IMG/VR virus record: IMGVR_UViG_3300028048_001412
Span: 109,858 to 173,857 of that record
Reading direction: 5' to 3' (one strand)
Length of the DNA stretch: 64,000 nt
Origin: a virus
Taxonomy: Duplodnaviria > Heunggongvirae > Uroviricota > Caudoviricetes
Shown here: positions 6,598 through 40,869 of the stretch, piece after piece
Layout: each line of letters opens with the position of its first letter
How positions within the stretch are numbered: the stretch's first letter is position 1
Notes under the pieces: generated by a model
What the model was told of the DNA's origin: nothing
The model's input: the letters and a program-made list of their open reading frames with translations, nothing else
Databases searched by the model: none
Position numbers and translations under genes: made by a program

Positions 6598-7980
6598 TTG
6601 AAAATTAATGATGAATATATTATTAAAATATTTACTAGAAAAGATAATAGAATAGATAGCCATAAATGTAATGATAAATGGTTGAATGAAAATATAGAAA
6701 TCAAAAAATATTTAGAATCTCGATTTGATTATTTCAATGGAAAATATTCAGATGTAATAAATCTTATAAAAAATAAAGTTAAAGAATGGCCTAAATGCCC
6801 GATTTGTAAAGAATATTTAAATCATCCTGAAAATAAGCATTGTTCTTATGCTTGCGAACAAAAAGATCCTTTAGTTAATGATAAAAAGAAAAATACTTAT
6901 TTAAATAATTATGGTGTAGAACATCCTTTAAAATCAAAAGAAATAAAGAAAAAAATAAAACAGACTAATTTGCAAAAATATGGAGTAGAAAATCCTTCTC
7001 AAAACGAAGAAATTAAAGAGAAGAAAAGACAAACTAGTTTAAAAAATTATGGAGTTGATAATCCATTTAAATCTGAAGATATTAAAGAAAAAATAAAAGA
7101 AATAAATTTACAAAGATATGGATTTGAAAATGTCTTTCAAAATGAACAAATAAGACAAAAATATAAAAGCACATGTAAAGAAAAATACGGTGTAGAAAAT
7201 CCATCTCAATCTGAAAAAATAAAGAAAAAGAAAGAAAATACTAATTTAAAAAACATAGGATTCAAAAATCCATTACAATCAGAAGAAATAAAGAAAAAAG
7301 TAAAAAATACTAACTTACAAAAATACGGTGTAGAAAATCCATCTCAATTGGAAGAAATTAAGAAGAAAAAAGAAGATTCTTGTCTGAAACATTATGGAGT
7401 AAAGAGTCCATTACAATCGGAAGAAGTAAAAGAGAAAAGTAAAAAAACATGTCTTAAAAAATATGGAGTTGAAGTAGCAGCTAAATCAGAAATAGTAAAA
7501 GAGAAATTATCAAAAACTCTTTCAACTATGGAATCAAAAGAAAAACAATATAATACCAAAAAGAAAAATAATTCCTTTAATACTTCAAAACCCGAAGAAG
7601 AAATATATGAAAAATTATGTAAACAATTAGGAAAAAATAATATTTTAAGAAATTATAATAAAGATTCTAGATATCCGTTTATGGTGGATTTCTACATTAA
7701 ATCAAAAGATCTATTCATTGAATGTAATTTTAACTGGACACATGGTGAACATTGGTTTAATGAAAACTCTAAAAGCGATTTAAAAATTTCACAAAAATGG
7801 AACGAAAAATCTAAAGATTCAGATTTTTATAAAATAGCATTAAAAGTATGGACAGTAAAAGATGTAGAAAAACGAGATACTGCCAATAAAAACGGATTAA
7901 ATTACATAGTATTTTGGAAAGAATCTGATTATGAAAAGTGGATTAGTAAAGGATGTCCAAAGAAATTTCAAAATAAATAG
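6598..7980 (+). CDS. Putative homing endonuclease (family A): N-terminal Cys/His zinc finger, nine tandem ~25-aa YGVENPxQSEEIKKK repeats, C-terminal Vsr/DUF559-like nuclease; TTG start
   Basis: N-terminus KINDEYIIKIF shared with 17541 and 25338. CPICKEYLNHPENKHCSYAC zinc finger. Repeats from aa ~98-305. C-terminus DFYIKSKDLFIECNFNWTHGEHWF. Confidence 0.65.
   Translation: MKINDEYIIKIFTRKDNRIDSHKCNDKWLNENIEIKKYLESRFDYFNGKYSDVINLIKNKVKEWPKCPICKEYLNHPENKHCSYACEQKDPLVNDKKKNTYLNNYGVEHPLKSKEIKKKIKQTNLQKYGVENPSQNEEIKEKKRQTSLKNYGVDNPFKSEDIKEKIKEINLQRYGFENVFQNEQIRQKYKSTCKEKYGVENPSQSEKIKKKKENTNLKNIGFKNPLQSEEIKKKVKNTNLQKYGVENPSQLEEIKKKKEDSCLKHYGVKSPLQSEEVKEKSKKTCLKKYGVEVAAKSEIVKEKLSKTLSTMESKEKQYNTKKKNNSFNTSKPEEEIYEKLCKQLGKNNILRNYNKDSRYPFMVDFYIKSKDLFIECNFNWTHGEHWFNENSKSDLKISQKWNEKSKDSDFYKIALKVWTVKDVEKRDTANKNGLNYIVFWKESDYEKWISKGCPKKFQNK
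6889..7520 (+). repeat. Nine tandem ~75-nt coding repeats (TxLxKYGVENPxQSEEIKKKxKx)
   Basis: Periodic repeats are visible at both the protein and nucleotide level inside 6598..7980. Confidence 0.7.
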
Positions 7981-8899: not shown

Positions 8900-10753
8900 A
8901 TGAATGAATTTACATCTTTTCACAAATTAATAGAAGATAAGAAATTAGATGAAAACGTAGCAAAACAGTTAATATTTTATGATGCTGAAGTTTTTCAAAA
9001 TGATTGGATGTTCGTAATAATAAATCCTTATACAAAAGAAACTAAAGTAATAGCTAATAATAGGGATGAATTATTTAAATATTTTTTGTCTCATAAGGAA
9101 TTTATTTGGATAGGATATAATACAACTCATTATGACCAATATATATTAAAATGTATATTGATGAATCTTAATCCTAAAGAAATGAGTGATTTCTTAATTA
9201 AAGATGGAGAAATGGGATGGAACTTCTTCAGAAAGAAAAAAATATACACTGCTGATTTAGCTCAATGTGAATATAATAACTATGATTTATTCCAAATAAA
9301 TGATGGTGGATTAAAAAAACTAGAATCATTTATGGGAAATGACATAGAAGAAACAGATGTGGATTTTGATATAGATAGAAAATTAACAGAAGAAGAATTA
9401 AAACAAACTGAAAAGTATTGTATTCATGATGTAGAACAAACAATAGAAGTATTTGTAAAAAGAATAGATTCATTTAATGCAAGATTGAGTTTATTAAAAA
9501 TATTCAATCTTAATTATAGTTATATGAATAAATCTGATGCTCAATTAACTGCAACTATATTAGGAGCAAAAAGACCTGCAGGAAGAGGAGAAGATGAATT
9601 TAATATAACATTACTTCCAAATATTAAGTTAGATAAATATAAAGAAGTATTAGAATGGTATAAAAATCCAGAAAATAGAGATTATAAGAAATCTTTAAAT
9701 ATAGATGTAGCAGGGGTTCCTCATACATTTGCTTGGGGTGGATTACATGGAGCAATAAAGAAATTTCACGAAGATGGATACTTTGTAAATATGGACGTTA
9801 CTTCATATTATCCTTCTTTAATGATAGAATATAATTTATTATCTAGAAACGTAGATCAACCAAGTAAATTTAAAAATATTTATAATCAAAGAGTATTATT
9901 TAAGAAACAAAAAGATGTAAGAGAAAAACCATTAAAAATTCCGCTAAATGCAACTTATGGTGCTTGTAAAGATAAATTTAGTCAATTATATGACCCTCTT
10001 CAAGCTAATAACGTCTGTTGTAATGGGCAATTATTTTTATTGGATTTAATAGAAAAATTAGAACCATATTGCAAAATAATACAAAGTAATACCGATGGTA
10101 TTTTAATTCAAGTAGTTCCAGCAACTAAAGCTCAATGGGTTAAAATATATGAAGTTACTCAAGAATGGCAAAAAAGAACAAAAATGAATCTTGATTTTGA
10201 AAGATTTGTTTCTGTATATCAAAAAGACGTAAATAACTATATCATTGTAGGAGAAGATGGTAAATATAAATCAAAAGGCTCATATGTTAAAAAGCAAAAT
10301 GATTTAGATAACGATCTTCCAGTGGTAAATAAAGCAATGAAAGATTATATGATAAATAAAGTTCCAGTAGAGGATACTATAAATAATTGTGATAATTTAT
10401 TAGATTTTGCTAAAACGGTTAAAGTTACAAGTGCTTATTTATATGGAGAAAAAGGAACATTTGATGATAATGGAGTAGAACAATACGAAAAACAAACCAA
10501 TAAAACTTTTAGAATATTTGCATCTAAAAATCCTAAAGATGGTGGAATATATAAAGCAAAAATGAAAGATAAGAAAGATAAAGAAACTGGAAATATTACT
10601 AAAGAATTATCTCATGATAAATTTGCTAATACTCCAATAAAGTGCTTTTTTAGAAATGGAAATATTCAAGGTGAAAAATGTCCAGAAGATTTAGATAAAC
10701 AATGGTATATTGATTTAGCAAATGAAAGATTAAAACAATTTGGTGTAAAATAA
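8900..10753 (+). CDS. Compact family-B DNA polymerase with 3'-5' exonuclease motifs
   Basis: Exo I FYDAEVF, Exo II YNTTHYDQYIL, Exo III YCIHDVEQT. Motif A DVTSYYPSLM, motif B KIPLNATYGACKDKFS, motif C region IIQSNTDGILI (NTD instead of DTD). Confidence 0.6.
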   Translation: MNEFTSFHKLIEDKKLDENVAKQLIFYDAEVFQNDWMFVIINPYTKETKVIANNRDELFKYFLSHKEFIWIGYNTTHYDQYILKCILMNLNPKEMSDFLIKDGEMGWNFFRKKKIYTADLAQCEYNNYDLFQINDGGLKKLESFMGNDIEETDVDFDIDRKLTEEELKQTEKYCIHDVEQTIEVFVKRIDSFNARLSLLKIFNLNYSYMNKSDAQLTATILGAKRPAGRGEDEFNITLLPNIKLDKYKEVLEWYKNPENRDYKKSLNIDVAGVPHTFAWGGLHGAIKKFHEDGYFVNMDVTSYYPSLMIEYNLLSRNVDQPSKFKNIYNQRVLFKKQKDVREKPLKIPLNATYGACKDKFSQLYDPLQANNVCCNGQLFLLDLIEKLEPYCKIIQSNTDGILIQVVPATKAQWVKIYEVTQEWQKRTKMNLDFERFVSVYQKDVNNYIIVGEDGKYKSKGSYVKKQNDLDNDLPVVNKAMKDYMINKVPVEDTINNCDNLLDFAKTVKVTSAYLYGEKGTFDDNGVEQYEKQTNKTFRIFASKNPKDGGIYKAKMKDKKDKETGNITKELSHDKFANTPIKCFFRNGNIQGEKCPEDLDKQWYIDLANERLKQFGVK

Positions 10754-17540: not shown

Positions 17541-18503
17541 GTGAATATTAATGATGAATATATATTATCTTTAGATATATTTGATACTAAAGGAAGACTT
17601 AAAGCAATATCATTTGAAAAAATACTTGAGAACAATTCTGAAATTAAAGAATATCTTAAAAATAGATATAATGATAAATTTGTAGATTATAAAACCGCTT
17701 TATGGAGAATTAGAAATAATATAGATGAATGGCCTAAATGTCCAACTTGTGGAAAATTATTAGATAATTTAGAACATAAACATTGTTCTCCAAGATGTGC
17801 TTCATTAGATCCGGAAGTGCAAAAGAAAAATGAAGAAACTAATTTAAAATTATATGGTGTTAGAAATGTATTTTGTTTAGAATCAGAACATAAAAAAGCA
17901 AAGAAAGAATGGGTAAAATCAATAGTTAAGAAATATGGTTCATTAAAGAATTTCTATAAAATACGTTCAGATTTAGGAAATAAAACGATTAAAGAAAAAA
18001 TAGAAGAAGATGAACATTTTTGGGATAAAAGAAATGAAAAGAAAAAAGAAACTATAGATTCTATATTAAAGAATGATCCTGATTGGTATAAAAGATTAAA
18101 AGAGAAAGAGATTGAAACTAAAAAGAAAAATAATTCTTTAAATGCTTCGAAAGAAGAAGATAGAATATATGAAAAATTATTAAATATATTTAACAAAGAT
18201 GATATTATAAGAGAATATTCTGAAAAAAGATATCCATTTCATTGCGACTTTTATATTAAATCAAAGGATTTATTCATTGAATGTAATTTTCATTGGACTC
18301 ATGGCTTTCATTGGTTTGATAAAAATAATAAATCTGATTTGGAAATAGTACAAAAATGGAAAGATAAAAATACTAAATTCTATGATATCGCAATAGAAGT
18401 TTGGACTAAGCGTGATATACTAAAACGAGATACTGCATTAAAAAATAAATTGAATTATTTGGTATTTTGGAACACAAAAGAATTTAAAAATTACAGTTTT
18501 TAA
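17541..18503 (+). CDS. Putative homing endonuclease (family A, short form with ~2 degenerate repeats); GTG start
   Basis: N-terminus NINDEYI. CPTCGKLLDNLEHKHCSPRC zinc finger. C-terminus RYPFHCDFYIKSKDLFIECNFHWTHGFHWF. Confidence 0.6.
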   Translation: MNINDEYILSLDIFDTKGRLKAISFEKILENNSEIKEYLKNRYNDKFVDYKTALWRIRNNIDEWPKCPTCGKLLDNLEHKHCSPRCASLDPEVQKKNEETNLKLYGVRNVFCLESEHKKAKKEWVKSIVKKYGSLKNFYKIRSDLGNKTIKEKIEEDEHFWDKRNEKKKETIDSILKNDPDWYKRLKEKEIETKKKNNSLNASKEEDRIYEKLLNIFNKDDIIREYSEKRYPFHCDFYIKSKDLFIECNFHWTHGFHWFDKNNKSDLEIVQKWKDKNTKFYDIAIEVWTKRDILKRDTALKNKLNYLVFWNTKEFKNYSF

Positions 18504-19885: not shown

Positions 19886-20380
19886 ATGAAAGATTATATA
19901 AAAGAAAAATTATTATCATATTCAAGTAATGAATATATGAAAAAATATATTGAGATATGTGAGTTTTATCAAGAAAAACCTTGTAAAACTAACAAATATA
20001 ATTTTCATCATATATTTCCAGCATTTTTATATAGACAAGAACACAATGCGAAGAATAGAAATAAAATTATAGATGATTTAGATAAAGAATATATTCCAAA
20101 AGATAATATAGTAAAATTACCTAATAAATGGCATTTCATAGTTCATTATTTTCTAGGAAAAGCATTATTAACTAAAGAAGCTATAAATAGTTTTCAAATA
20201 TTTATAGGTGATTTTAATAAAAACATAAATGATTATACATTAGATGAAGTTAAATTATTAGGACAAGAATATGAAGATACCTCTCAACCTAATACATTAA
20301 ATGAATATATGACAAATAAAGAAAAACAGAAATATTATTATCAACAATATAAAGAATATATGAAATCTAAAAAGAAATAG
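19886..20380 (+). CDS. Small HNH-like endonuclease
   Basis: NFHHIFPAFLY ... N...LPNKWH pattern. Confidence 0.35.
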   Translation: MKDYIKEKLLSYSSNEYMKKYIEICEFYQEKPCKTNKYNFHHIFPAFLYRQEHNAKNRNKIIDDLDKEYIPKDNIVKLPNKWHFIVHYFLGKALLTKEAINSFQIFIGDFNKNINDYTLDEVKLLGQEYEDTSQPNTLNEYMTNKEKQKYYYQQYKEYMKSKKK

Positions 20381-20443: not shown

Positions 20444-21193
20444 ATGGTAAAAGATGGAAAAATAGCATTAGTTGAAATTTTTAAATCTATTGATGGAGAA
20501 GGTTTTCACTCAGGTCAACCTACTGTTTTCATAAGAACTTTCGGATGCAATCTCCACTGCAGTTTCTGTGATACTTCATATTCTTTAAATGAAGAAGAAT
20601 ATAAGAAAACATATAATAAAGATTTATTATGGATGACAGCTGAAGAAATAGTAAATAAGTGTAATGAATTGGAAAAAGATTTTAAATATAAATCTGTTTG
20701 TTTAACAGGTGGAGAACCTTTAATAGAAGAAAATAAAGATTTTATGTTAAATCATCTTATACCATTATTATTAGATAATAAATATGCAGTGAATATAGAA
20801 ACAAATGGTGCTGTAGATTATAAACCATATAAAGATAAATTCGGAGAACCTGTAATATTAGACCCTTATGGAAATAGATATGGAGTAAGTATTATAGCAG
20901 ATTATAAACTTCCATATTCTAAAATGAATAAATTGATGAAATGGGAAAATTTATCAATTTATAGTGAATATGATTTAATTAAAATGGTAATTAGTGATGA
21001 TCCTGAAGATTGGAAAGAGTTAGAAAAAGTATGTCAATCAGGAACCAAAGCAAAGTTGTATTTAAGTCCTTGTTTTGGAGAAGTGACAATGTCAAAAATA
21101 CCGGAATTTGTAATGAATCATCCAGAATATAATATCACGGCTCAATTGCAAATCCATAAATTCTTCTGGGACAAAGATAAGATAGGAGTGTAA
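20444..21193 (+). CDS. queE: 7-carboxy-7-deazaguanine synthase (radical SAM)
   Basis: IDGEGFHSGQPTVFIRTFGCNLHCSFCDT (CxxxCxxC and the QueE-type N-terminus). Confidence 0.8.
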   Translation: MVKDGKIALVEIFKSIDGEGFHSGQPTVFIRTFGCNLHCSFCDTSYSLNEEEYKKTYNKDLLWMTAEEIVNKCNELEKDFKYKSVCLTGGEPLIEENKDFMLNHLIPLLLDNKYAVNIETNGAVDYKPYKDKFGEPVILDPYGNRYGVSIIADYKLPYSKMNKLMKWENLSIYSEYDLIKMVISDDPEDWKELEKVCQSGTKAKLYLSPCFGEVTMSKIPEFVMNHPEYNITAQLQIHKFFWDKDKIGV

Positions 21194-21197
21194 AGAA

Positions 21198-22085
21198 ATG
21201 ATGAATATAAATCAAGAATTATTAGAATTTATTAAAGACAATTATCAGAAGAAATTCGGAAGTTTAGATACATTTGAAGAAAATTATAAATTATATTGTT
21301 CTTTACCTTCTTTTAAAGCAAGTGAAAATTTTCATGAAGTATTTGGACAATTAAATGTAATAAATTCAGAAGATCCAAATGCTTTAGATAAAGAGAGTGA
21401 ATTTGTAAATAGAGAAGAAAAATTAGGAGATAATACTAAATATACTGATTATTTAGATTGTCAAAAAGAATTAAAACCTGAAATACATTGGATAATGAGA
21501 TCTGTCGCTCAATTCTATATGATAAAAGTATTTGATGCATTAAAAATAGATCAAAAAGATCCAAATATAGCAATAAATGCTTTAGGTAAAGGAACTCCAG
21601 GCAGAATTGTTAAAATGTGGAGTGGCGCTAATCCAGAAGATACATCAGAATTATTATCAGGAAGGTGGAATAAAGAACCTGCGCTATCAGTATTTCCAAA
21701 TGATGGTTCAACTACAGGAGGAGAAATAATCACTACTCCTATTACTAAAGAAGTAGATGTAGTTGCTGTTTGTAGTCACCATTTTCTTCCATTTTCAACA
21801 TTAGAACCAAATGCAAAAGCAATAATTACATATATACCACAAAAGCATTTAATTGGAATATCTAAATTGCAAAGATTTACTAAATGGGCTAGTGCAAGAG
21901 GATGGTTACAAGAAGATTTAACAACTTATTTAGGAACAACAATTAAAAGAATAAGTGAATCTGAAGATGTAAAAGTAGAACTGATCAATTTAGTTCATGG
22001 ATGTGAAAAGTTTAGAGGTGCTTATTCTAAAAATGGTAATTTAACAACTTATTATAAATCAGGAGTGTTCAAAGATGTCAAGTAA
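21198..22085 (+). CDS. folE: GTP cyclohydrolase I with ~100-aa N-terminal extension
   Basis: GTPGRIVKMW, VCSHHFLPF (CEHH zinc motif), TYIPQKHLIGISKLQRF, HGCEKFRG. Confidence 0.85.
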   Translation: MMNINQELLEFIKDNYQKKFGSLDTFEENYKLYCSLPSFKASENFHEVFGQLNVINSEDPNALDKESEFVNREEKLGDNTKYTDYLDCQKELKPEIHWIMRSVAQFYMIKVFDALKIDQKDPNIAINALGKGTPGRIVKMWSGANPEDTSELLSGRWNKEPALSVFPNDGSTTGGEIITTPITKEVDVVAVCSHHFLPFSTLEPNAKAIITYIPQKHLIGISKLQRFTKWASARGWLQEDLTTYLGTTIKRISESEDVKVELINLVHGCEKFRGAYSKNGNLTTYYKSGVFKDVK

Positions 22086-22959
22086 AGAATATTTTTCTAA
22101 AGAGTATCAAAAAGATCTTTATGAATATATGGCTGATAGAACGTGGCTTAAAAAAGGTAAAGAAATGCATTTACCTGAAAAAAAATTAAAACGTAAGTTT
22201 GATATGATAAATTTTGAAAAATATCCTGGTGTAAATGAGGAGAGAATTTGGAATGTTAAAGAAAATACTAAAGAACAATATACTAATCCTAAATTCTTAC
22301 AAAATTATAAAGCTGCAAATAAAGAACAATTAAAATTATTAAAAAAAGCTGATAAAAAAGATATTCTATTATTATCTCTATGTGCAAATAATAAACCTTA
22401 TTCTGATAATGCTACTATAAGATGTGTAAAAAACATTGCTGATAAAAATAATATGGATTATGCTATATTATCAAAAACGGTTTGGTTTATAGAACCTTTT
22501 GATTTTTCAGTTAGACCTCCCGCATTATGTTATAATGAACCTCATGATTGGTTCTATTATAGTATAGCATTTAAGAAATATTGTGATAAAAAGAAATTAA
22601 AAGAAAAATTCGAAGAATTTAATAATAGTTGGTTTCCTGGATTTGAAATGCCTCAATATATGGTAGAAGAAATATCTAAACAATATAAAGCAATAGTGAT
22701 TTTTCATAATGGTGGGGCTAATGAATATTTAAGAAGATTTGGGAGTGAACATTATAAGCCATTTGAACCTAGTTGTCCAGTTTATAATATAGATACTTCT
22801 AAAGAAATATATATGAAAGAATTAAGGCCTATATTTCATTCAGGTGGATTATGCCATCAAAGATATTATACCAGTAAAAAAGCAACTAATGAAATAGCAA
22901 ATATTTGTAAAAATATAAGAAAAGATGTTATTCCTCAAAAAAATCTTATGAATAAGTAA
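22075..22959 (+). CDS. Hypothetical protein embedded in 7-deazaguanine cluster (overlaps folE by 11 nt)
   Basis: 294-aa ORF with no recognisable motif. Translationally coupled to folE. Confidence 0.5.
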   Translation: MSSKEYFSKEYQKDLYEYMADRTWLKKGKEMHLPEKKLKRKFDMINFEKYPGVNEERIWNVKENTKEQYTNPKFLQNYKAANKEQLKLLKKADKKDILLLSLCANNKPYSDNATIRCVKNIADKNNMDYAILSKTVWFIEPFDFSVRPPALCYNEPHDWFYYSIAFKKYCDKKKLKEKFEEFNNSWFPGFEMPQYMVEEISKQYKAIVIFHNGGANEYLRRFGSEHYKPFEPSCPVYNIDTSKEIYMKELRPIFHSGGLCHQRYYTSKKATNEIANICKNIRKDVIPQKNLMNK

Positions 22960-22978
22960 TCAGTAAAGGAGAATATAA

Positions 22979-23668
22979 ATGAAACCAGATCTAAAAATAA
23001 AGAATAGTGATTTTAAATACTTTGAGATAAATCCAGAGAAATATAGTAGAGAATATGTAATGTTATTAGCTCAGGATTATCATAAAAATCCCAATAAAGA
23101 AATTCCAAAAGCTGATTATAAGATGCTGGACAATGGAGCTGCCGAAGGAGAACAACTATCTAATAAAGATTTGATAGAAGTAATTAAATTAGTAAAGCCG
23201 GATGAAATTATATATCCTGATATAATGGGAGATAAAGATGCTACTATAAAATCATCTACTGAATTTTATAATGAATTACCTGATGATTTAAAGAATTCTT
23301 TATCTAAACTAGGTGTAATTCATGGAAAAACATTTAAAGAATTTCAAGAATGTGCTGAATATTATATGGAAAGCGGTAAAATTAAAGTAGATGTAATAGG
23401 AGTTCCTAAATATTCTGTATATTCTTTAAAGAATATGTTTGTTAGAGTTAAATTAGCAAAATGGTTGAATGAGAAATATCCAAATGTAAAAATTCATTTT
23501 TTAGGAATGAATGAACCTTTTTATATTATAAAACAAGCAATAGAAAAAGGAATGATTATAAGAAGTATAGATAGTATTGTTCCTTATCAATGGGAAAAAG
23601 AAAATTCAAGTATTCCATTTGATTATTATTTAAGAGATCCAGATATTTCTTATAATGAATTAAAGTAG
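22979..23668 (+). CDS. Hypothetical protein; weak TGT/DpdA-like (DNA-guanine transglycosylase) resemblance
   Basis: MLDNGAAEG (compare TGT DSGGFQ) and IRSIDSIVPYQW (compare TGT MFDCVLPTR). 229 aa is short for TGT. Genomic context supports the assignment. Confidence 0.3.
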   Translation: MKPDLKIKNSDFKYFEINPEKYSREYVMLLAQDYHKNPNKEIPKADYKMLDNGAAEGEQLSNKDLIEVIKLVKPDEIIYPDIMGDKDATIKSSTEFYNELPDDLKNSLSKLGVIHGKTFKEFQECAEYYMESGKIKVDVIGVPKYSVYSLKNMFVRVKLAKWLNEKYPNVKIHFLGMNEPFYIIKQAIEKGMIIRSIDSIVPYQWEKENSSIPFDYYLRDPDISYNELK

Positions 23669-23676
23669 AAATATAA

Positions 23677-23688
23677 GTATAATATAAT
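23677..23688 (+). promoter_or_regulatory. GTATAATATAAT motif
   Basis: Motif instance upstream of the mazG-like gene. Confidence 0.4.
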
Positions 23689-23719
23689 TAGAGAATATTT
23701 TCAGGAGGTTTTAGTTAAT

Positions 23720-24073
23720 ATGACAATACAAGAATATCAAAAGTATGTAAAAGAAGGTGCTAGTAAAGATTATACTAAAGAATTAGCCATAATTGGAGTT
23801 ATGGGAGAATTAGGTGAGCTTTCAGATGTAGTGAAAAAAGAGGCAATTTTTAAGGATATGTCTAAATTTATAGAAAAATATGGCATGTCAGTAGAAGACA
23901 AAATGACTTCAGAGATAGGTGACATTATGTGGCAAGTATTTAATTTAGCCAATATGTATAATATAGATATGGAAAAAATATTAGAACATAATGTAGAAAA
24001 ATTAAATAAAAGACATGGTGGAGCAGGTAAAACAGCAATTGATGGTGGAATAAGATTAAATCCAAACGAATAA
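23720..24073 (+). CDS. MazG-like nucleoside triphosphate pyrophosphohydrolase
   Basis: ELGELSDVVKKE ... EIGDIMWQVFNLANMYNID. Confidence 0.6.
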   Translation: MTIQEYQKYVKEGASKDYTKELAIIGVMGELGELSDVVKKEAIFKDMSKFIEKYGMSVEDKMTSEIGDIMWQVFNLANMYNIDMEKILEHNVEKLNKRHGGAGKTAIDGGIRLNPNE

Positions 24074-24092
24074 AAATTTAAAGGAGAAAATA

Positions 24093-24539
24093 ATGAGATT
24101 AATTTTAATTGGACCTGATTGTTGTGGGAAATCAACCTTAGCAAAAAAATTATCAAAACAGTTAAATGTTCCTATAATAAAAGGAATAAGAGGTGATTTT
24201 GATCAAATAAATAGACAAAAAGAACCATGTATATTTGATAGAATTCCTAATATAGATGAAAGAATCTATACTAATTCTAAAATAACGGATAAAGATATAG
24301 AACCTTTAAAAGATAATTGTATTGTTCTTTATATAGAAACTCCTTTATCAGTATTAAAAGAAAGATTTGAAATTAGAGGAGATGAAGAAGTTAATTTAGA
24401 TGATATCCAAAGAGTAAAAGAAAATTATGAAAAATGGCTATTTATGGAAAATAGAATAAATTTAATGATGATCACTTATGATTATACTAAAAAAGATATA
24501 GATAGAATAATTGAAGCATTTAATAAATATGGTAAATAA
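24093..24539 (+). CDS. P-loop nucleotide/nucleoside kinase (dNMP kinase or polynucleotide-kinase-like)
   Basis: N-terminal MRLILIGPDCCGKSTLAKKL Walker A. Confidence 0.5.
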   Translation: MRLILIGPDCCGKSTLAKKLSKQLNVPIIKGIRGDFDQINRQKEPCIFDRIPNIDERIYTNSKITDKDIEPLKDNCIVLYIETPLSVLKERFEIRGDEEVNLDDIQRVKENYEKWLFMENRINLMMITYDYTKKDIDRIIEAFNKYGK

Positions 24540-24552
24540 GAGGTGAAAAGAT

Positions 24553-25314
24553 ATGAAAGCAATAGTTAGTCTTTCTGGCGGTAGAGATTCTGCAACTTGT
24601 TTAGGAGTGGCTGTAGAAAAATATGGAAAAGAAAATGTATTTGCTATGGGATTTGAATATGGAAGTACTCACCCACAAGAATTAGAAGCAGCACAAAAAA
24701 TAGCTGATTATTATGGCGTTCCTTATCAAATAGTTAAAATAGATCCAAGTATATTTGAAGGTTCAGGTTGTTCTATGTTAGAATCAGAAGGATTATCTCC
24801 TGAAAAAGGAAAAACATATGAGCAATTACAAGCAGAAAATGAAGGAAAAGTAGCAACTTATGTTCCAGCAAGAAATACATTATTTTCAGCATATGTATTA
24901 GCAAAAGCAGAATCATTAGCCCAAAAATATAATGATGAAGTAACTATTATTTTAGGTCAACACGCAGATGATTCAGGATTTTATGTAGATGAAAATGGAG
25001 TAGAACATTTAGATTATACTAAATCAGCATATCCAGATACTTCAGTAGAATTTGTAGAAGCTTTTGCAAAAGTAGCTGAAATTAGTTCGGTTGGAAAAGT
25101 AAAATATTGGTCACCATTTATAAAGAATCATAAATATGAATTATTACAAATAGGTTCAAAATTAAAGAAACCTGTTCCATATAATTTATGTATATCTTGT
25201 TATAAACCAGAATTAGGTGAAGATGGTAAATATCATGAGTGCGGATTATGTGCAACCTGCTTGGACACTTTGAAAGCATTAAAGAAAGCAGGATTACCAG
25301 AAAAATTAAATTAA
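24553..25314 (+). CDS. queC: 7-cyano-7-deazaguanine (preQ0) synthase
   Basis: PP-loop SLSGGRDS. C-terminal zinc-cluster cysteines (CISC...C, CGLCATC). Confidence 0.8.
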   Translation: MKAIVSLSGGRDSATCLGVAVEKYGKENVFAMGFEYGSTHPQELEAAQKIADYYGVPYQIVKIDPSIFEGSGCSMLESEGLSPEKGKTYEQLQAENEGKVATYVPARNTLFSAYVLAKAESLAQKYNDEVTIILGQHADDSGFYVDENGVEHLDYTKSAYPDTSVEFVEAFAKVAEISSVGKVKYWSPFIKNHKYELLQIGSKLKKPVPYNLCISCYKPELGEDGKYHECGLCATCLDTLKALKKAGLPEKLN

Positions 25315-25337
25315 AATAAAGAAAAGGAATAATTTAT

Positions 25338-26462
25338 TTGAAAATTAATGATAAATACATCTTGAAAATTTTTATTGGAGAGAATCAAAGAGTTAATGGT
25401 TGGAGATGTTCTTATAATTGGATAAATGAAAATCCAGAAATCAAAGAATATCTAGAGACTAGATTTAATTATTTCAATGGAAAATACGGAGATGTAGTTA
25501 GATTAATAAGAGATGGATTTGATGAATGGCCTAAATGTAAAACATGTAATGAATTTTTAAAAGAACCATTTACTCAAGATAAACAACCTTCATATCATAT
25601 TTATTGCAGCAATAAATGTAAGAATATAAATGAAGAAAAGAAACAGAAATCTATAAATACTTGTTTGGAAAAATACGGAACTCCAGTTTCTTCTCAATCC
25701 GAAATAGTTAAAGAAAAAGAGAGAAATACTATAAATTCTAGAACTGAAGAAGAGAAAAATAAAATAACTTCTAGAGCTAGAAAAACTTATATTAAAAAAT
25801 ATGGAGTAAATTGGATTTCAAAATCAAAGGAATTTAAAGATAAATTCAAAGAGACTTGGGATAATAAATCAGAAGAAGAATTACAAGACATAAAAAATAA
25901 AAAAGAAAATACTTGCTTAGAAAAATACGGCGTGAAATATTATTTTGAAACAGAAGAATTTCAAGAAAAATCAAAACAAACTATTCTAGATAAATACGGA
26001 GTAGAGTACACGCATCAATGCAAAGAAATATTAGATAAAGTTAATGAAACTAAACATAAAAATGGAACATTTAATACATCGAGGCCTGAAGAAGAATTTT
26101 ATAAATATCTTTTAAATAATTTTTCGGAAAATGATGTAAAAAGACAATATTATAAAGATTCTAGATATCCATTCAGATGTGATTTCTATATTAAATCTTT
26201 GGATTTATTTATAGAGTTAAATCTTTCTTGGGTTCATGGTGGACATTGGTTTAATAAAAATTCAAAAGAAGATTTAAAAATATTAGATAAATGGAAAAAT
26301 AAAAATACAGATTATTATAATGCGGCTATAAATACATGGACGAAGAGAGATTTATTAAAAAAGAAAACAGCAATAAAAAATAAGATTAATTATCTTGTTT
26401 TCTGGACTGAAAAAGAAATAAATAATTTAATAAAAGGAGAAAATAAATTATGTATAGTTTAA
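25338..26462 (+). CDS. Putative homing endonuclease (family A, ~4 degenerate repeats); TTG start; inserted between queC and queD
   Basis: N-terminus KINDKYILKIF. CKTCNEFL zinc finger. C-terminus RYPFRCDFYIKSLDLFIELNLSWVHGGHWF. Confidence 0.6.
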   Translation: MKINDKYILKIFIGENQRVNGWRCSYNWINENPEIKEYLETRFNYFNGKYGDVVRLIRDGFDEWPKCKTCNEFLKEPFTQDKQPSYHIYCSNKCKNINEEKKQKSINTCLEKYGTPVSSQSEIVKEKERNTINSRTEEEKNKITSRARKTYIKKYGVNWISKSKEFKDKFKETWDNKSEEELQDIKNKKENTCLEKYGVKYYFETEEFQEKSKQTILDKYGVEYTHQCKEILDKVNETKHKNGTFNTSRPEEEFYKYLLNNFSENDVKRQYYKDSRYPFRCDFYIKSLDLFIELNLSWVHGGHWFNKNSKEDLKILDKWKNKNTDYYNAAINTWTKRDLLKKKTAIKNKINYLVFWTEKEINNLIKGENKLCIV

Positions 26463-26878
26463 GAATTAAATTCGAAATTGCCTACGCTCATAGATTAATG
26501 ACTTCCTATTCCGCCAGTTGCAGGGGACTCCACGGACATAACGGAGTGTGTGAAATATTAATAGGAAATGATAAATTAAATGAAGATATGATGGTGGTAG
26601 ATTTCAAAAAAATTAAAGAAATTGTGAAAGAAACTTTAGAAGAAAAATATGATCATTCAACTATTCTTTATAAAGATGATCCATTAGCAGAAGCAGTAAA
26701 ACCTTTCTGTAATCCAGCTAAATTTCATTTATTTGAAAAGAATCCAACAGCTGAATATATGGCTGAAAGATTTACAAATGAATTACAAGAAATATTAGAT
26801 AAAGAGTTACCGGGAACTAAAGTATTATCATTTAGTTTTGAAGAAACATCAAATAATAAAGCAATATTTGAAAGTTAA
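26450..26878 (+). CDS. queD: 6-carboxy-5,6,7,8-tetrahydropterin synthase
   Basis: FEIAYAHRL and CRGLHGHN motifs. Confidence 0.8.
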   Translation: MYSLRIKFEIAYAHRLMTSYSASCRGLHGHNGVCEILIGNDKLNEDMMVVDFKKIKEIVKETLEEKYDHSTILYKDDPLAEAVKPFCNPAKFHLFEKNPTAEYMAERFTNELQEILDKELPGTKVLSFSFEETSNNKAIFES

Positions 26879-31267: not shown

Positions 31268-32740
31268 GTGATTGAGATGATTAAATTAATTCTTATTGGT
31301 TCTCTAGTAGTCATATTTCTACTAGTTTTAACAAGTGGATATGTAAAGAGTCCACCTGATATTGCATTTATTATTTCTGGTTTAGGCAAAAAACCTAAAG
31401 TTCTTATTGGTCAAGCCGGAATTAGAATTCCTTTCTTTGAAAGATTGGATAAATTATTAGTAAAACAAATATCAGTAGATATTAAAACTAATGGAGCTAT
31501 TCCAACTAAAGATTTTATAGGTGTAGATATAGATGCTATTGCAAAAGTTAGAATAATGACTGATCCTGAAGGAATTCAAAAAGCAATGAAAAACTTTTTG
31601 AATATGTCAGAAGAAAGAATTATTCAATCTCTTACAGATTCTTTGCAAGGAAATATGCGTGAAATTATAGGAACAGTTTCTTTAAAAGAATTATGTACTG
31701 ATAGAAAACAATTTGGTGATCAAATACAAGAGAAAGCACAAGCAGATATGAATGCACTTGGAATTGAAATAATTTCTTGTAATATTCAAAAGATAGAAGA
31801 TGAAAAAGGTCTTATAAATGCTTTAGGTCAAGATAATATGTCTCAAATTCAAAAATCAGCAAGTATTGCTAAAGCTGAGGCTGAAAGAGATGTTAAAATT
31901 GCTCAAGCGGAAGCTGATAAGGCCGCTAATGAAGCAGAAGTAAATGCAAAAACAGAAATTGCTAAAAGAAATAATGATTTAGCAATTAAAGAATCTGAAT
32001 TAAAAGCCATTTCAGATAATGAAAAAGCAAAGGCTGATGCTGCATATGAAATTCAAAAAGAAGAGCAAAGAAGAAGTATAGAAACTCAAAAAGTAAATGC
32101 TGATATTGCTAAAGCATCTAAAGAAGCTGAATTAAAAGAACAAGAGATTAAAGTAAAACAAAATACTTTAGCCGCTGAAATTAAAGCAACTGCTGATGCT
32201 GAAAAATATAGAAAAGAAAAAGAAGCAGAAGCTATTAAATTAGTAGCAATGCAAGAAGCAGAAGCAATTAGAGTTAAAGGTGAAGCAGAAGCAGAGGCAA
32301 TTAGAGCAAAAGGTAAAGCAGAAGCTGACGCAATGTTAGAAAGAGCAAAAGCATATCAACAATATAATAAATATGCAGCAATTGAAAAAATAGTTGATAT
32401 ATTACCACAAGTTGCAAAAGAAGTATCTTCTCCAATCACTCAAATTAAAGATATTAAAATCTTTGATGGTGGAAGTGATGGAAATGGTGTTACTCAAGTA
32501 GGCGGATATGTTCCGGGAGTAATGGCTAAGACATTCGAAACAGTAAAAGCAGCTACCGGGATAGATTTAGGCGAAGTTGTAAAAGGTGAAACATATGATG
32601 CTAAAGTAAATAAAAATATAAAGATAGATTCTCAATTAAATTCAAAAACAGCAGAAAGAATTTATGATAAGAAAGCTAAAGCTGAAAAAGAAATGATTGA
32701 GAAAGAAATTAAAAATCAATCAGAAGGAGATGAAGAATAA
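31268..32740 (+). CDS. Flotillin-like SPFH/band-7 membrane protein
   Basis: N-terminal TM. SPFH region. Long Ala/Glu/Lys-rich coiled coil AEAERDVKIAQAEADKAANEAE, typical of FloT/YuaG. Confidence 0.6.
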   Translation: MIEMIKLILIGSLVVIFLLVLTSGYVKSPPDIAFIISGLGKKPKVLIGQAGIRIPFFERLDKLLVKQISVDIKTNGAIPTKDFIGVDIDAIAKVRIMTDPEGIQKAMKNFLNMSEERIIQSLTDSLQGNMREIIGTVSLKELCTDRKQFGDQIQEKAQADMNALGIEIISCNIQKIEDEKGLINALGQDNMSQIQKSASIAKAEAERDVKIAQAEADKAANEAEVNAKTEIAKRNNDLAIKESELKAISDNEKAKADAAYEIQKEEQRRSIETQKVNADIAKASKEAELKEQEIKVKQNTLAAEIKATADAEKYRKEKEAEAIKLVAMQEAEAIRVKGEAEAEAIRAKGKAEADAMLERAKAYQQYNKYAAIEKIVDILPQVAKEVSSPITQIKDIKIFDGGSDGNGVTQVGGYVPGVMAKTFETVKAATGIDLGEVVKGETYDAKVNKNIKIDSQLNSKTAERIYDKKAKAEKEMIEKEIKNQSEGDEE

Positions 32741-34211: not shown

Positions 34212-34661
34212 ATGAATTTTGATCAATTAATTTATCTTTTAATTAGTGGATATTTAGGATGTTTCATAACCGGAATATTATTTTTCATAATATTAAATTT
34301 TGAATTATATATTCTCAATGGTTTATTTAAGAAAGTGAATAATTTAAATTCTTTAGCTAAAAAGAATTGGGATGAAATAGGACAAGTAATAACTCTTATT
34401 CAGAAAGATCCTAAACACATTAATTCATATTCAGAAGAAGAATTTAAAAAAGTATGTAAACAAATAGAAGAAATATCATTATTTAGTATTTATATTTGGA
34501 CAGTTCAAATACCATTATTAATGAATAAGATAAAGAAATGGTTAAATTCCACTCAAAATACAATAAATGTTATAAATATGTTTCTAAAATTAATAACATT
34601 TGGTAAAATAAAATTTGAAACTAGGACTAATTTTAAAGGAGGAAACACATATGGAAATTAA
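34212..34661 (+). CDS. Hypothetical membrane protein
   Basis: Two predicted TM stretches. Confidence 0.45.
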   Translation: MNFDQLIYLLISGYLGCFITGILFFIILNFELYILNGLFKKVNNLNSLAKKNWDEIGQVITLIQKDPKHINSYSEEEFKKVCKQIEEISLFSIYIWTVQIPLLMNKIKKWLNSTQNTINVINMFLKLITFGKIKFETRTNFKGGNTYGN

Positions 34662-35604
34662 GAAATTTGTAGATATTGAGAATTTAAGAGAAAAAGATAC
34701 TTTATTGAACGGATTGGTTACTAGAGGAAGAAATGATTTAAATTTCAGACCTGGCAATCAGATTTCAATAACTACTAAAGTAGATGGTTCAAACGCTTCT
34801 GTTGGATATAATGCAGAAACAGATAAATTAGAATGTTGGAGTAGAAGATTGCCATTAAAGTTTGATAATACTTTAAATGGATTTTTTGAATATGTTCAAT
34901 TATTAGATGTTTCTCCTTTCAAAAATCATCCTACATATAGAGTATTTGGTGAATGGATGCCATTTCAAAGAACAAATAAAATAACATATGATGAAAAGAT
35001 GAATCATAGATGGATAATTTATTCTATTTATGATATAAAAGAAGAAAAATGGTTAACTCAAGATATTGTTAAATCTTTCTGTGAAGAATCAGGATTAGAA
35101 TATGTAGAAGTTTTATATGAAGGTCCATTTATTTCATGGGATCATTGTAGAGAATTTATGAATAAATCTAAATACGGTGATAAACAAGAAGGAATAGTAA
35201 TTAGAAATATGGACGGTATTTATAATCCTGATGTTAAATATCCTTGGATTCTTAAAATAGTAGGAGAAGAATTTTCAGAAATAATGAAACATTCTAGAAA
35301 ACCTAAAGATCCTGAAGAAGAAAGAAGAAAACAAGGAGCTAAAGGAAAAGCCGCTGAAATATTATCTACTGTAATTACTAAAAATAGAATTGAAAAAGCA
35401 ATTACTAAATTCCAAGAAGATGGAATATTACCAAAACAATTATCTGATAAAGATATGGGAAATATAGCAAAAATACTTCCAAAAGCAATATATGAAGATA
35501 TATTGAAAGAAGAACCTGAAACTTTACAAGCATCTGGAGAATATGGCCCAAAAGTATTAGGACAAATGGTAATGGCTATAGTAAGACCTATGATATTAGG
35601 ATAA
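34651..35604 (+). CDS. ATP-dependent nucleic-acid ligase, RNA ligase 2-like size and motifs
   Basis: Motif I TTKVDGSNASVGY (KxDG). EGIVIRN (motif IV). KYPWILKIVGEEF (motif V). The likely start at 34651 follows a GGAGG RBS. The track ORF began at 34615. Confidence 0.55.
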   Translation: MEIKKFVDIENLREKDTLLNGLVTRGRNDLNFRPGNQISITTKVDGSNASVGYNAETDKLECWSRRLPLKFDNTLNGFFEYVQLLDVSPFKNHPTYRVFGEWMPFQRTNKITYDEKMNHRWIIYSIYDIKEEKWLTQDIVKSFCEESGLEYVEVLYEGPFISWDHCREFMNKSKYGDKQEGIVIRNMDGIYNPDVKYPWILKIVGEEFSEIMKHSRKPKDPEEERRKQGAKGKAAEILSTVITKNRIEKAITKFQEDGILPKQLSDKDMGNIAKILPKAIYEDILKEEPETLQASGEYGPKVLGQMVMAIVRPMILG

Positions 35605-36041: not shown

Positions 36042-36239
36042 ATGGAAAAATGGATCATTTATAGAAATAATGGACATGATATAATAGGAAATGAAGATGT
36101 AGGATATCAAATAACAAATGATATAAAAAATGCACTTATTTTTCCAAATGAATCTTCAGCAAGAGATTATAAGAAATTTTATGATGAAGAATCTATAAAA
36201 TCAGGAAATGGAAAATGGATGGTAAAACAAATACAATGA
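36042..36239 (+). CDS. Hypothetical small protein
   Basis: 65-aa ORF. Confidence 0.35.
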   Translation: MEKWIIYRNNGHDIIGNEDVGYQITNDIKNALIFPNESSARDYKKFYDEESIKSGNGKWMVKQIQ

Positions 36240-37504
36240 TTTATCAATATGACAAAAATATAATAGAGCAATATATTAAAGAAGGATGGTTAATAAGAAA
36301 ATGGCATCCTACTTTACCGTTACAAATTCTTAATTACAGCAGAGCTACTGAATATTCAGGAAAATGGGATGATATTACTAAAAACTGCAGAGGATTAGTT
36401 TTAGATGATAATTACAAGGTAGTAAGTCCTTGTATGCCTAAATTTTTTAACTTCTATCAACATCAAACAGAAGATCAGAAAATAATAGAAGAAAAAATGA
36501 AACATGGTTTTTATAATATCATGGCCAAGTACGATGGATGCTTGGGTTCAGTCTTTGAATATAACGGAGAAATTGTTTGTGCTTCTAAAGGCTCTTTTGA
36601 TTCATTTGTTACTAAAGAAATGTATAAAATGATAGATGGAAAATTATTCATAAATGATTTTGAAACCGTAAAATCTAATCTTATAGTAGAAGTTATTCAT
36701 CCAAATACTCATATCTTATGCAATTACGGAGATACAAAAGAATTTAGAGTTATAACTTCTTTTAGATGTGACAGAAAGAATAATGATTATTTCGAATGGT
36801 CTTATGAAGATACTTTAAATATAATTCATAATATGGATCCAAATCAAGAATTATTGAAACCTATAGAATCTTATAATATGACATTTGAACAATTAAGAGA
36901 ATGGCAAAAGAAACATAATGATAAATTAACTGAAGGATTTGTAGTAAGATTTTTAGATGATTCAGACTCAAAAATACAAAGAGTTAAGTTCAAATCAGAA
37001 GAATATTTATCTATCGCGGCAGTAAAATCAAATGCAGATCCAATTCATATATGTAATAATGCATTGGAATTATTTAAAGATAGAAAAAATTGGCCTAAAT
37101 ATGAAAATGGAAAATGGTTGGATTATTTATATGCTCAAGTTAAAGAAATTCCAGAAGATGAATTAAGAGATAAAGCATTTAATATATGTACTAATTTATG
37201 GGTAAAAACAGAATTTATATATGATAAATTCTTTATGATTGCTCAAAAATATAAAGATTTATCTGATAAAGAATTAGGAATGAAAGCAAAAGAAGATTCT
37301 GAATTAAAAAAGAATCTTAATTATATTTTCAATATTAGACACGATAAACCTTTTGATAGAGTTCTTATAGAAATGGCAAAACAAGAATTCATAGAATTTG
37401 AATCTTTACCAGAAGAAGAAAAAGAAAGAATTAGACAAGAAAAAGAAATAAAATTAGAAAAACATAAACAAAAATTAGATGAATGGAGGAAATCTCAATG
37501 TTAG
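36215..37504 (+). CDS. RNA ligase 1-like (T4 RnlA-like) nucleotidyltransferase
   Basis: IMAKYDGCLGSVF (KxDG; T4 Rnl1 has KEDGSLVSTY). EGFVVRF. KFKSEEY. The true start may be the ATG at 36236 (ATGA overlap with the previous stop). Confidence 0.55.
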   Translation: MDGKTNTMIYQYDKNIIEQYIKEGWLIRKWHPTLPLQILNYSRATEYSGKWDDITKNCRGLVLDDNYKVVSPCMPKFFNFYQHQTEDQKIIEEKMKHGFYNIMAKYDGCLGSVFEYNGEIVCASKGSFDSFVTKEMYKMIDGKLFINDFETVKSNLIVEVIHPNTHILCNYGDTKEFRVITSFRCDRKNNDYFEWSYEDTLNIIHNMDPNQELLKPIESYNMTFEQLREWQKKHNDKLTEGFVVRFLDDSDSKIQRVKFKSEEYLSIAAVKSNADPIHICNNALELFKDRKNWPKYENGKWLDYLYAQVKEIPEDELRDKAFNICTNLWVKTEFIYDKFFMIAQKYKDLSDKELGMKAKEDSELKKNLNYIFNIRHDKPFDRVLIEMAKQEFIEFESLPEEEKERIRQEKEIKLEKHKQKLDEWRKSQC

Positions 37505-40062: not shown

Positions 40063-40869
40063 ATGAATGATATAAAACAATATTGGAAAAATAAAGATAC
40101 TAAAGCACAAGAAGCCAAAGTTCATACAGAATTAATGGAAAAATTCAATAAAAAAGAGATTGAGAATTCAATAGAAGGAACTATTGAATATGAAGAACAT
40201 AAAAATATTGAATTAAATACTTCTATTTCTAATCAAATTCCAGAATTTATATTAGATGATATTGATTCTGTTTCTGCAATATTCAAATATAAAGAAGATG
40301 ATGTTAAAATGGCAGTATTAAATTTTGCATCATTTAAATTTGCAGGCGGAGGATTTATTAAAGGTTCTATTGCACAGGAAGAATGTTTATGTCATGAATC
40401 TTTTTTATATAATGTATTATCTAAAAAAGAAGATTTTTATGCAAAAAATAGAACTATATTAAATGATAGCCTTTATAAAAATAGAGGATTATATTCTCCA
40501 GATATTCAATTTAGTAGAAAGATAGAGGATAATAATATCATATGTAATTGCAATGTTATAACAGTTGCAGCTCCTAATAAAAGAGCATATTTACAACATA
40601 ATGAGAAAAGTAAAGAATTGGAAGAGATAAATAAAAGATATTTAGTTTCTAGATGTAATTTTGTACTTACTATTGCTAAACTTCATAATATTAAAACACT
40701 AATATTAGGTGCTTTTGGATGTGGAGTATTTAATCAAGATCCAGAAGAAGTAGCTTTAGCATTTAGAACATTATTAGAACAATACGATTATGGTGTAGAA
40801 AAAGTAATATTTGCTATTCCTAATAAAAATGATCCGAATTATCAAGGATTTTTTAAATATTTTAAGTAA
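40063..40869 (+). CDS. PARG-type macrodomain protein (DUF2263/TIGR02452-like poly/mono-ADP-ribose glycohydrolase)
   Basis: LNFASFKFAGGGFIKGSIAQEE matches the PARG catalytic signature GGG-X6-8-QEE. Confidence 0.55.
   Translation: MNDIKQYWKNKDTKAQEAKVHTELMEKFNKKEIENSIEGTIEYEEHKNIELNTSISNQIPEFILDDIDSVSAIFKYKEDDVKMAVLNFASFKFAGGGFIKGSIAQEECLCHESFLYNVLSKKEDFYAKNRTILNDSLYKNRGLYSPDIQFSRKIEDNNIICNCNVITVAAPNKRAYLQHNEKSKELEEINKRYLVSRCNFVLTIAKLHNIKTLILGAFGCGVFNQDPEEVALAFRTLLEQYDYGVEKVIFAIPNKNDPNYQGFFKYFK

Follow-up and report, generated by a model that had tools for sequence, protein, structure and literature searches.

Phage genomes built with 7-deazaguanines withstand most restriction enzymes, and some of the CRISPR nucleases as well. 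The presence of a DpdA-family protein is taken as the signature of this kind of DNA modification (PMC10516641). Phages with DpdA1 or DpdA2, such as Enterobacteria phage 9g (Seuratvirus/Queuovirinae) and Mycobacterium phage Rosebush, combine genes for 7-cyano-7-deazaguanine (preQ0) with an enzyme of the tRNA-guanine transglycosylase (TGT) superfamily, and their modification, which follows replication and is placed at sequence motifs, affects about 30% of G at most (PMC10516641, PMC10484667). In the bacterial Dpd system, preQ0 is inserted by DpdA together with DpdB, and turned by DpdC into 2'-deoxy-7-amido-7-deazaguanosine (dADG) (PMC10164549); less than 0.1% of G is modified. Phages with DpdA3, a subfamily defined on protein CGPG_00065 of Cellulophaga phage phiST (Hutinet et al. 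2023, PMC10516641), replace all G (100%), compared with 30% or less for DpdA1, DpdA2 and the bacterial enzyme (bDpdA), all of which act on DNA (PMC10516641). To account for full replacement, a modified dGTP was proposed first (PMC6884629), and a post-replicative DpdA3 later, without biochemical proof (PMC10516641). Here we analyze a stretch of 64,000 nucleotides, referred to as the window, from an uncultivated phage (IMG/VR record IMGVR_UViG_3300028048_001412, positions 109,858 to 173,857). Judging from its genes, the region at 20444-26878 of the window is very probably a DpdA3-type 7-deazaguanine DNA-hypermodification module; that the modification is made before replication, at the nucleotide level, is a reading to which we assign a probability of about 50%.

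The locus adds a new member to the known DpdA3-type systems. It shares with the published ones (PMC10516641) the DpdA3 family itself, the FolE, QueD and QueE core and, as neighbors of DpdA3, a small kinase along with an NTP pyrophosphatase or phosphohydrolase; it differs in belonging to an unrelated phage, in gene order, in an orphan gene (ORF294), in an inserted homing endonuclease, and in having QueC without DpdL, DpdN or QueF. Its interest lies in the whole family, where a triad is conserved: DpdA3 together with an NTP pyrophosphatase and a kinase. Nine plus-strand open reading frames (ORFs) are packed into the region, with spacings of -13 to +51 nucleotides and a Shine-Dalgarno-like motif before each of them, in the order QueE, FolE, ORF294, DpdA3, MazG, kinase, QueC, homing endonuclease, QueD. 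They are given below with their E-values, followed by a polymerase gene discussed further on.

20444..21193, + strand: QueE, 7-carboxy-7-deazaguanine synthase (radical SAM); TIGR03963 2e-51, PF04055 Radical_SAM 8.6e-13, phrog_2076 1.2e-40
21198..22085, + strand: FolE, GTP cyclohydrolase I; PF01227 8.4e-23 (residues 162-293), NF006824 2.1e-21
22075..22959, + strand: ORF294, orphan protein of 294 aa; AGGAG ribosome-binding site, 11-nucleotide overlap with FolE
22979..23668, + strand: ORF229, DpdA3-subfamily TGT-fold base-exchange enzyme of 229 aa; profile, tblastn and structure matches
23720..24073, + strand: MazG-type NTP pyrophosphohydrolase; PF03819 3e-12, phrog_229 6.2e-19
24093..24539, + strand: dNK/Tmk-like P-loop kinase; PF01712 dNK 1.3e-8, phrog_761 'thymidylate kinase' 8.4e-15
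24553..25314, + strand: QueC, 7-cyano-7-deazaguanine synthase; PF06508 3e-37, TIGR00364 1.5e-35
25338..26462, + strand: free-standing homing endonuclease, DUF7487 family; PF24308 9.2e-21, phrog_3339 'homing endonuclease' 3.3e-19
26450..26878, + strand: QueD, 6-carboxytetrahydropterin synthase; PF01242 7.2e-25, TIGR03367 7.2e-20
8900..10753, + strand: phage DNA polymerase, outside the reported cluster coordinates; phrog_1252 'DNA polymerase' 8.1e-166

On the profile and structural evidence, ORF229 is a DpdA3 protein, with apparently intact active-site and base-recognition residues. Searched as a single sequence against Pfam and NCBIfam, it gave no match at E<=0.01 and remained below the gathering threshold of TGT (PF01702). 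An earlier sequence-only reading of the window, made without database searches, had recognized no QueF, QueA or TGT: this held for QueF and QueA, which find no match in the cluster ORFs, and for TGT solely within such single-sequence searches of Pfam and NCBIfam, a TGT-superfamily enzyme being present at 22979-23668. The same reading had proposed the two unassigned ORFs for comparison with TGT and DpdA, and one of them, ORF229, proved to be a TGT-fold protein of the DpdA3 family, the other, 22075..22959, an orphan. An exhaustive HMMER scan with ORF229 collected 1476 cluster representatives at E<=1e-3, mostly of about 250 aa. The profile A1, built on the alignment of ORF229 with 101 homologs (102 sequences, no named DpdA3 protein inside), matched CGPG_00065 (2.5e-38) and CPT_0056 (3.3e-27), both over their full length, and immuto26A_65 (2.7e-38); its best DpdA match among PDB sequences reached just E 1.1e-3. 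Matches obtained by tblastn with the A1 consensus were confined to 32 INPHARED records, which include the published DpdA3 groups (Campylobacter CP220-group, Cellulophaga phiST-group and Flavobacterium immuto phages) along with Bacillus BSP7/BSTP, Weizmannia Youna2 and Chryseobacterium MA9V-3; que genes are present in all 4 of the matched phages inspected, and the immuto homolog is annotated 'DNA guanine transglycosylase'. AlphaFold, run with A1, produced a confident (beta/alpha)8 barrel in the TGT arrangement (predicted local distance difference test score, pLDDT, 87.8). The best 50 Foldseek matches of this model in the PDB are all tRNA-guanine transglycosylases, and the top match among viral models (BFVD) is the phiST protein M4SLA5.

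Five residues, D51, D81, H173, G176 and D198, do not vary across the alignment (102 of 102 sequences), nor in any named DpdA3. HMMER alignment to DpdA (7ui4), for which residue roles are taken from PMC10164549, matches H115 with His181 and D198 with the nucleophile Asp256; hhalign comparison with E. coli TGT, of weak score and agreeing register, pairs D81 with D143 and D198 with D264. D51 is predicted, by motif similarity only, to be the equivalent of DpdA Asp95. The barrel is shared with bacterial DpdA, whose residues Asp95, Asp130, His181 and Asp256 would correspond to D51, D81, H115 and D198; D51 is predicted to act as acid/base and D198 as nucleophile, D81 and H115 to recognize the base. 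Position 115, His in the window protein, is Gln in 91 of its 102 relatives, a further difference from the published DpdA3 phages; it is His in bDpdA (His181) and Bacillus phage BSP7, Gln in TGT. The choice between His and Gln at this position was considered as a predictor of substrate and discarded, as it does not correlate with the presence of QueC.

Between 198 and 205 of the 229 residues of ORF229 align to proteins of 373-577 residues. ORF229 contains one Cys, and its C terminus lies 31 residues past D198; hence it has no CxCxxC...H zinc site or subdomain. Two Cys or fewer are found in half of the DpdA3 family members. Judged by homology, ORF229 is a bare barrel, devoid of the zinc and insertion elements by which TGT and DpdA hold tRNA or DNA, and differs in this from bacterial DpdA, which carries the Zn/Ins8 subdomain, and from DpdA1 and DpdA2, which are longer (306-346 aa in two controls). 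The zinc site and the Pfam threshold are the only canonical TGT tests that ORF229 fails, and both failures are typical of DpdA3. The isoelectric point, tried as an indicator of DNA binding, gave no information, the DpdA3 family median being 5.9 and the value of E. coli TGT 6.0.

These structural features bear on two ways of understanding DpdA3. According to Hutinet et al. 2023, DpdA3 is a DNA transglycosylase and all 7-deazaguanine modifications are post-replicative (PMC10516641). The enzyme would then flip G from newly made DNA and insert preQ0 like DpdA1, DpdA2 and bDpdA, an explanation that we regard as a serious one, of appreciable but less than even probability. It is supported by the fold and by all three catalytic Asp, common to DpdA3 and to DpdA and TGT, which act on polynucleotides (PMC10164549), as do all characterized nucleic-acid members of the fold, and it is the stated conclusion of PMC10516641. 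It is at odds with the absence from DpdA3 of the Zn/Ins8 region, which accounts for 30% of DpdA and has been linked to DNA binding (PMC10164549), and with the fact that DpdA3 activity on DNA was never demonstrated (PMC10516641).

The genes found next to DpdA3 provide the second line of evidence. MazG and a P-loop kinase had already been noticed from the letters of the window, and PF03819 and PF01712 bear out both; they had been listed as mere co-residents of the cluster, which has to be corrected, MazG, kinase and DpdA3 being a module that recurs across phage lineages. In the window the three are consecutive genes, the most compact unfused form seen. MazG features the motifs ELGE, ELSD and EIGD; the kinase scores 35.3 bits with PF01712, above the curated cut-off of 27, and features GPDCCGKS, DR and RGDE.

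To describe the family, the ORFs of 85 DpdA3 loci (80 IMG/VR loci, 4 isolated-phage loci and the window) were searched with the window proteins. FolE is present in 76 of them, QueD in 71, QueE in 67 and QueC in 63; MazG homologs are found beside DpdA3 in 59, nearly always immediately upstream of it. The usual order is QueC, QueD, QueE, FolE, MazG, an ORF of about 110 aa, DpdA3. This ORF, conserved in 46 other loci in the interval between MazG and DpdA3 (L005-L084; for instance L008 9514-9870), bears the motif RHxxGAEKYGP...DLANYARYxYIKL and is not present in the window. It was evaluated as a second MazG and rejected (hhalign probability 0.5%, no Pfam match); it may be another component of the module.

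Eight of the 150 best family representatives (P0009, P0011, P0020, P0023, P0039, P0114, P0125 and P0150) are fusions of about 435 aa, in which a dNK/Tmk-like kinase forms the N-terminal part and DpdA3 the rest; their loci are ordered MazG, kinase-DpdA3, QueD, QueE, FolE. The window kinase aligns over its full length with the fused kinase domain, sharing the motifs GxDxxGK[ST], DR..[IV]D[DE]..Y and RGDE. Small P-loop kinases adjoin DpdA3, or lie near it, in Bacillus BSP7 (BSP7_056) and Chryseobacterium MA9V-3 (XQU63046). Cellulophaga phiST has the kinase-like CGPG_00066 (AAA_18 9.4e-7; L003 6520-6999), with the MazG-like CGPG_00068 close by. CGPG_00066 occupies the same position as the BSP7 and MA9V-3 kinases; it is listed without homologs in other 7-deazaguanine phages by Hutinet et al. 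2023 (PMC10516641), who mention no kinase.

Other lineages feature kinases of the AAA_28 family. DpdA3 of Campylobacter CP220 is flanked by CPT_0057 on one side and, on the other, by CPT_0055, in which a kinase is joined to an HD phosphohydrolase; the order in Flavobacterium immuto_2-6A is NTP pyrophosphohydrolase, hypothetical protein, DpdA3, hypothetical protein, PurN-like formyltransferase, 'thymidylate kinase', QueF. Both the CP220-type and the immuto-type kinases are AAA_28 proteins, members of which are named in the sources nicotinamide riboside kinase, uridine kinase, deoxyadenosine/deoxycytidine kinase or thymidylate kinase. The HD protein encoded in the window at 4898-5527 was considered as a counterpart of the kinase-fused HD domain of CP220 and dismissed, the similarity not being significant. 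MazG and dNK-like kinase are both absent from two control clusters, DpdA1 of GottfriedDienst and DpdA2 of Sabella, and the DpdA1/DpdA2 systems differ in this from the window module, which they resemble in being anti-restriction 7-deazaguanine DNA modification systems.

The favored explanation is a base swap preceding replication. MazG would convert dGTP into dGMP and pyrophosphate, removing the canonical competitor and supplying the substrate; DpdA3 would act on the free deoxynucleotide or deoxynucleoside, putting preQ0 in place of guanine by way of a covalent deoxyribosyl-Asp198 intermediate; the dNK-like kinase, with host kinases, would restore the triphosphate of the modified product, and the phage polymerase, putatively that encoded at 8900..10753, would build the modified deoxynucleoside triphosphate (dNTP) into DNA. 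As an outcome, dPreQ0, or possibly dADG, would replace most or all dG in the virion and confer resistance to restriction. It is an even bet that DpdA3 is the first TGT-fold enzyme to exchange a base on free dGMP or dG, rather than a DNA transglycosylase. The triad of DpdA3, a dGTP remover (MazG or HD) and a dedicated kinase would, with a chance we rate as balanced, also explain the 100% replacement of G in CP220, phiST and the immuto phages.

Several observations argue for the pre-replicative reading: the kinase-DpdA3 fusions and the recurrence of both partners in unrelated phage lineages; the bare DpdA3 barrel, which lacks the parts with which TGT and DpdA hold nucleic acids; and the replacement of 100% of G by the DpdA3 phages tested, as against 30% or less by DNA-acting DpdAs. 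Moreover, DpdA3 activity could not be demonstrated in the E. coli system of Hutinet et al., and the 7-amido-7-deazaguanine (ADG) nucleoside has been observed inside CP220-infected cells, in the cytoplasm (PMC10516641). A route through modified dGTP had also been proposed earlier, with 'undetected 2'-deoxyribosyltransferases' (PMC6884629).

Routes of this kind have precedents in the replacement of other bases. T4 uses a dCTPase, a dCMP hydroxymethylase and a dNMP kinase. Cyanophage S-2L, with its Z-genome, replaces a base before replication by means of the PurZ, MazZ and DatZ triad (PMC8342488). By analogy, MazG or an HD protein would clear the canonical dNTP, a dedicated enzyme would make the modified dNMP, and kinase and polymerase would finish the job. 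The window differs from S-2L and T4 in that the step would be a transglycosylation, that is a base swap by a TGT-fold enzyme, and not a chemical change of the existing base; no homologous base-changing enzyme is common to them. A search of the papers available returned neither 7-deaza-dNTP or 7-deaza-dNMP intermediates nor a link between a kinase and DpdA3.

A number of points weigh against a pre-replicative swap, beginning with the published interpretation of DpdA3 given above. About 75 of the 85 loci have no kinase within 10 kb, which is the main caveat: not every locus has one, and where it is missing its work would fall to host Gmk. The DpdA1 and DpdA2 controls amount to two loci only. We know of no TGT-superfamily enzyme acting on mononucleotides. 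MazG could instead clean the pool of toxic deazapurine NTPs, and the P-loop protein might, in the manner of DpdB, assist as an ATPase.

If modification is post-replicative, MazG and the kinase have to be accounted for by pool sanitation, nucleotide supply or DpdB-like ATP-dependent help. The last has a precedent, since bDpdA requires the ATPase partner DpdB (PMC10164549), and the lack of an adjacent kinase at most DpdA3 loci fits such an account. So does the family A DNA polymerase gene located directly downstream of DpdA3 in 53 loci (for instance L001 8647-10662), a position compatible with action at the fork. What it fits less well is the nature of the fused or adjacent partners, which belong to families of small-molecule nucleoside and dNMP kinases (dNK, Tmk, AAA_28) and are not ParB-like as DpdB is. 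The conserved dNTP pyrophosphatase is also hard to explain if G is incorporated first, and replacement of 100% of G is atypical of known post-replicative DpdAs. DpdB (a ParB-like ATPase), DpdC and the dpdD-K restriction genes were all missing among the cluster ORFs and the 40 other window ORFs scanned. The BSP7 polymerase, the one of these polymerases that was scanned, contains an N-terminal domain of the uracil-DNA glycosylase (UDG) superfamily (PF03167 4.9e-16).

The locus and the comparative data together make a swap on free nucleotides a concrete and testable three-enzyme hypothesis. If true, it would mean a new reaction for the TGT fold and a simple enzymatic path to 7-deaza-dNTPs and to fully substituted DNA, restriction-proof or sequencing-friendly, and it would explain the failure of DpdA3 in heterologous tests made without its partners. 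If false, the uncultivated jumbo phage still provides a known anti-restriction system with a clean new example.

The supply of preQ0 is accounted for by the other genes of the cluster. As the sequence-only reading had maintained, QueE, FolE, QueC and QueD are all there with canonical catalytic motifs; Pfam, NCBIfam and PHROG matches back all four. QueE features CNLHCSFC at residue 35 (C35-x3-C-x2-C) and GGEP; FolE features CSHH (residue 192) and HGC (residue 267); QueC features SGGRDS, CISC and CGLCATC, with a C-terminal Cys cluster. The motif of QueD, C24-RGL-HGH, is the canonical CxxxHGH of a true QueD and not that of the decarboxylase DpdL, LxxxHRHxF (PMC10516641). The N-terminal extension of FolE, about 100 aa long (21198-21500, residues 1 to about 100), matches no family; in most other DpdA3 loci the FolE ORF is about 190-260 aa long. 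The complete pathway from GTP to preQ0, claimed beforehand, is borne out by homology: FolE would convert GTP into 7,8-dihydroneopterin triphosphate (H2NTP), QueD this into 6-carboxytetrahydropterin (CPH4), QueE the latter into 7-carboxy-7-deazaguanine (CDG), and QueC would lead through ADG to preQ0.

The four biosynthetic genes are also those of the tRNA queuosine pathway, and the phage encodes tRNAs; the cluster might thus be an auxiliary metabolic module that boosts preQ0, queuosine or archaeosine-like modification of tRNA and leaves DNA aside. We consider this very improbable. The cluster contains neither QueF, QueA or QueG nor a full-length TGT with the tRNA-binding zinc subdomain; the four tRNAs found in the window (Ser-GGA, Gly-TCC, Glu-TTC and Leu-TAG) are not queuosine tRNAs; and the DpdA3 family is confined to phages with fully 7-deazaguanine-substituted DNA (PMC10516641). 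That the preQ0 genes serve the modification of virion DNA, and not of tRNA, had been proposed from the outset, and is strengthened by DpdA3, the signature insertion enzyme. No preQ1 riboswitch or other Rfam element was found in the cluster at gathering thresholds, and promoter-like and terminator-like sites are no more frequent between 19.5 and 28.5 kb than in shuffled sequences.

No match to QueF, QueA, Gat-QueC, ArcS, DpdL, DpdM or DpdN was found among the cluster ORFs. By default the final base is predicted to be dPreQ0, since QueC is present while QueF, ArcS, Gat-QueC, DpdL, DpdM and DpdN were not found. A different base, either dADG or a new derivative, produced by ORF294 or by a QueC that halts at the amide, is possible but rather unlikely. 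In its favor, the orphan ORF294, apparently translated, sits between folE and dpdA3, CP220 carries dADG despite a QueC-like gene, and a handful of phages has yielded four new derivatives (PMC10516641). Against it, the QueC motifs are all canonical, and ORF294 resembles neither DpdL, DpdM, DpdN, QueF, ArcS, Gat-QueC and DpdC nor anything else.

ORF294 looks like a real gene because of its own ribosome-binding site and its operon-style overlap with folE. It has no match in Pfam, NCBIfam or PHROG, even at E<=1, and none among phages by tblastn; in 5.8 billion proteins the sole match is a 99%-identical copy. Neither phmmer nor jackhmmer detected relatives in the 85 DpdA3 loci, and the equally long neighbor gene of phage MA9V-3 is unrelated. 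The AF2 model obtained from the single sequence (pLDDT 34.6) is unusable. ORF294 may have a tailoring or accessory role specific to its lineage.

The homing endonuclease encoded at 25338-26462 is a selfish insert between queC and queD, and stands outside the pathway. Its description from the letters as a homing-endonuclease paralog splitting these two genes is confirmed by the DUF7487 and PHROG matches and by two paralogs in the window, at 6598-7980 (40% identity, 6e-93) and 17541-18503 (39% identity, 6e-61). All three DUF7487 proteins bear KYG-type repeats, in variable number. Three more HNH-type ORFs are located at 19886-20380, 41177-42097 and 57435-58271; the density of selfish endonucleases in the window is unusually high.

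The source is an uncultivated AT-rich jumbo phage, with a contig of 284 kb and 25% GC; the ORF229 protein is recorded on this 284-kb contig and in two other assemblies. Near-identical DNA was not found in isolated phages (INPHARED), and the RecA/UvsX-like protein has distant matches only, at 36% identity or less. GC content is 23-29% across the window, AT-rich throughout, and nearly all ORFs are on the plus strand. The cluster was rightly placed in a replication region, which is also one of recombination: genes of the window specify a DnaB-like helicase, a primase, topoisomerase II subunits and the RecA/UvsX-like protein, as well as a Cas4-like nuclease, a resolvase and Mre11- and Rad50-like proteins.

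Within this replication module, a protein encoded at 2731-3804 (+ strand) joins a GmrSD N-terminal (DUF262) domain to an HNH nuclease, an architecture like that of type IV restriction enzymes, which target modified DNA; this would be of note in a phage that hypermodifies its own DNA. A HEARO RNA (RF02033, IscB omega-RNA family) is located at 5542-5757 (+ strand), where it covers the full model length and scores 96.4 bits, above the gathering score of 83. It is flanked by the HD-domain gene (4898-5527) and by the gene of a phage single-stranded DNA-binding protein (5940-6521), and no IscB-sized ORF adjoins it. Other genes of the phage encode two SPFH/flotillin-like proteins (31268-32740 and 49754-50608), a microbial PARG-like protein (40063-40869) and two RNA-ligase-like proteins (34615-35604 and 36215-37504).

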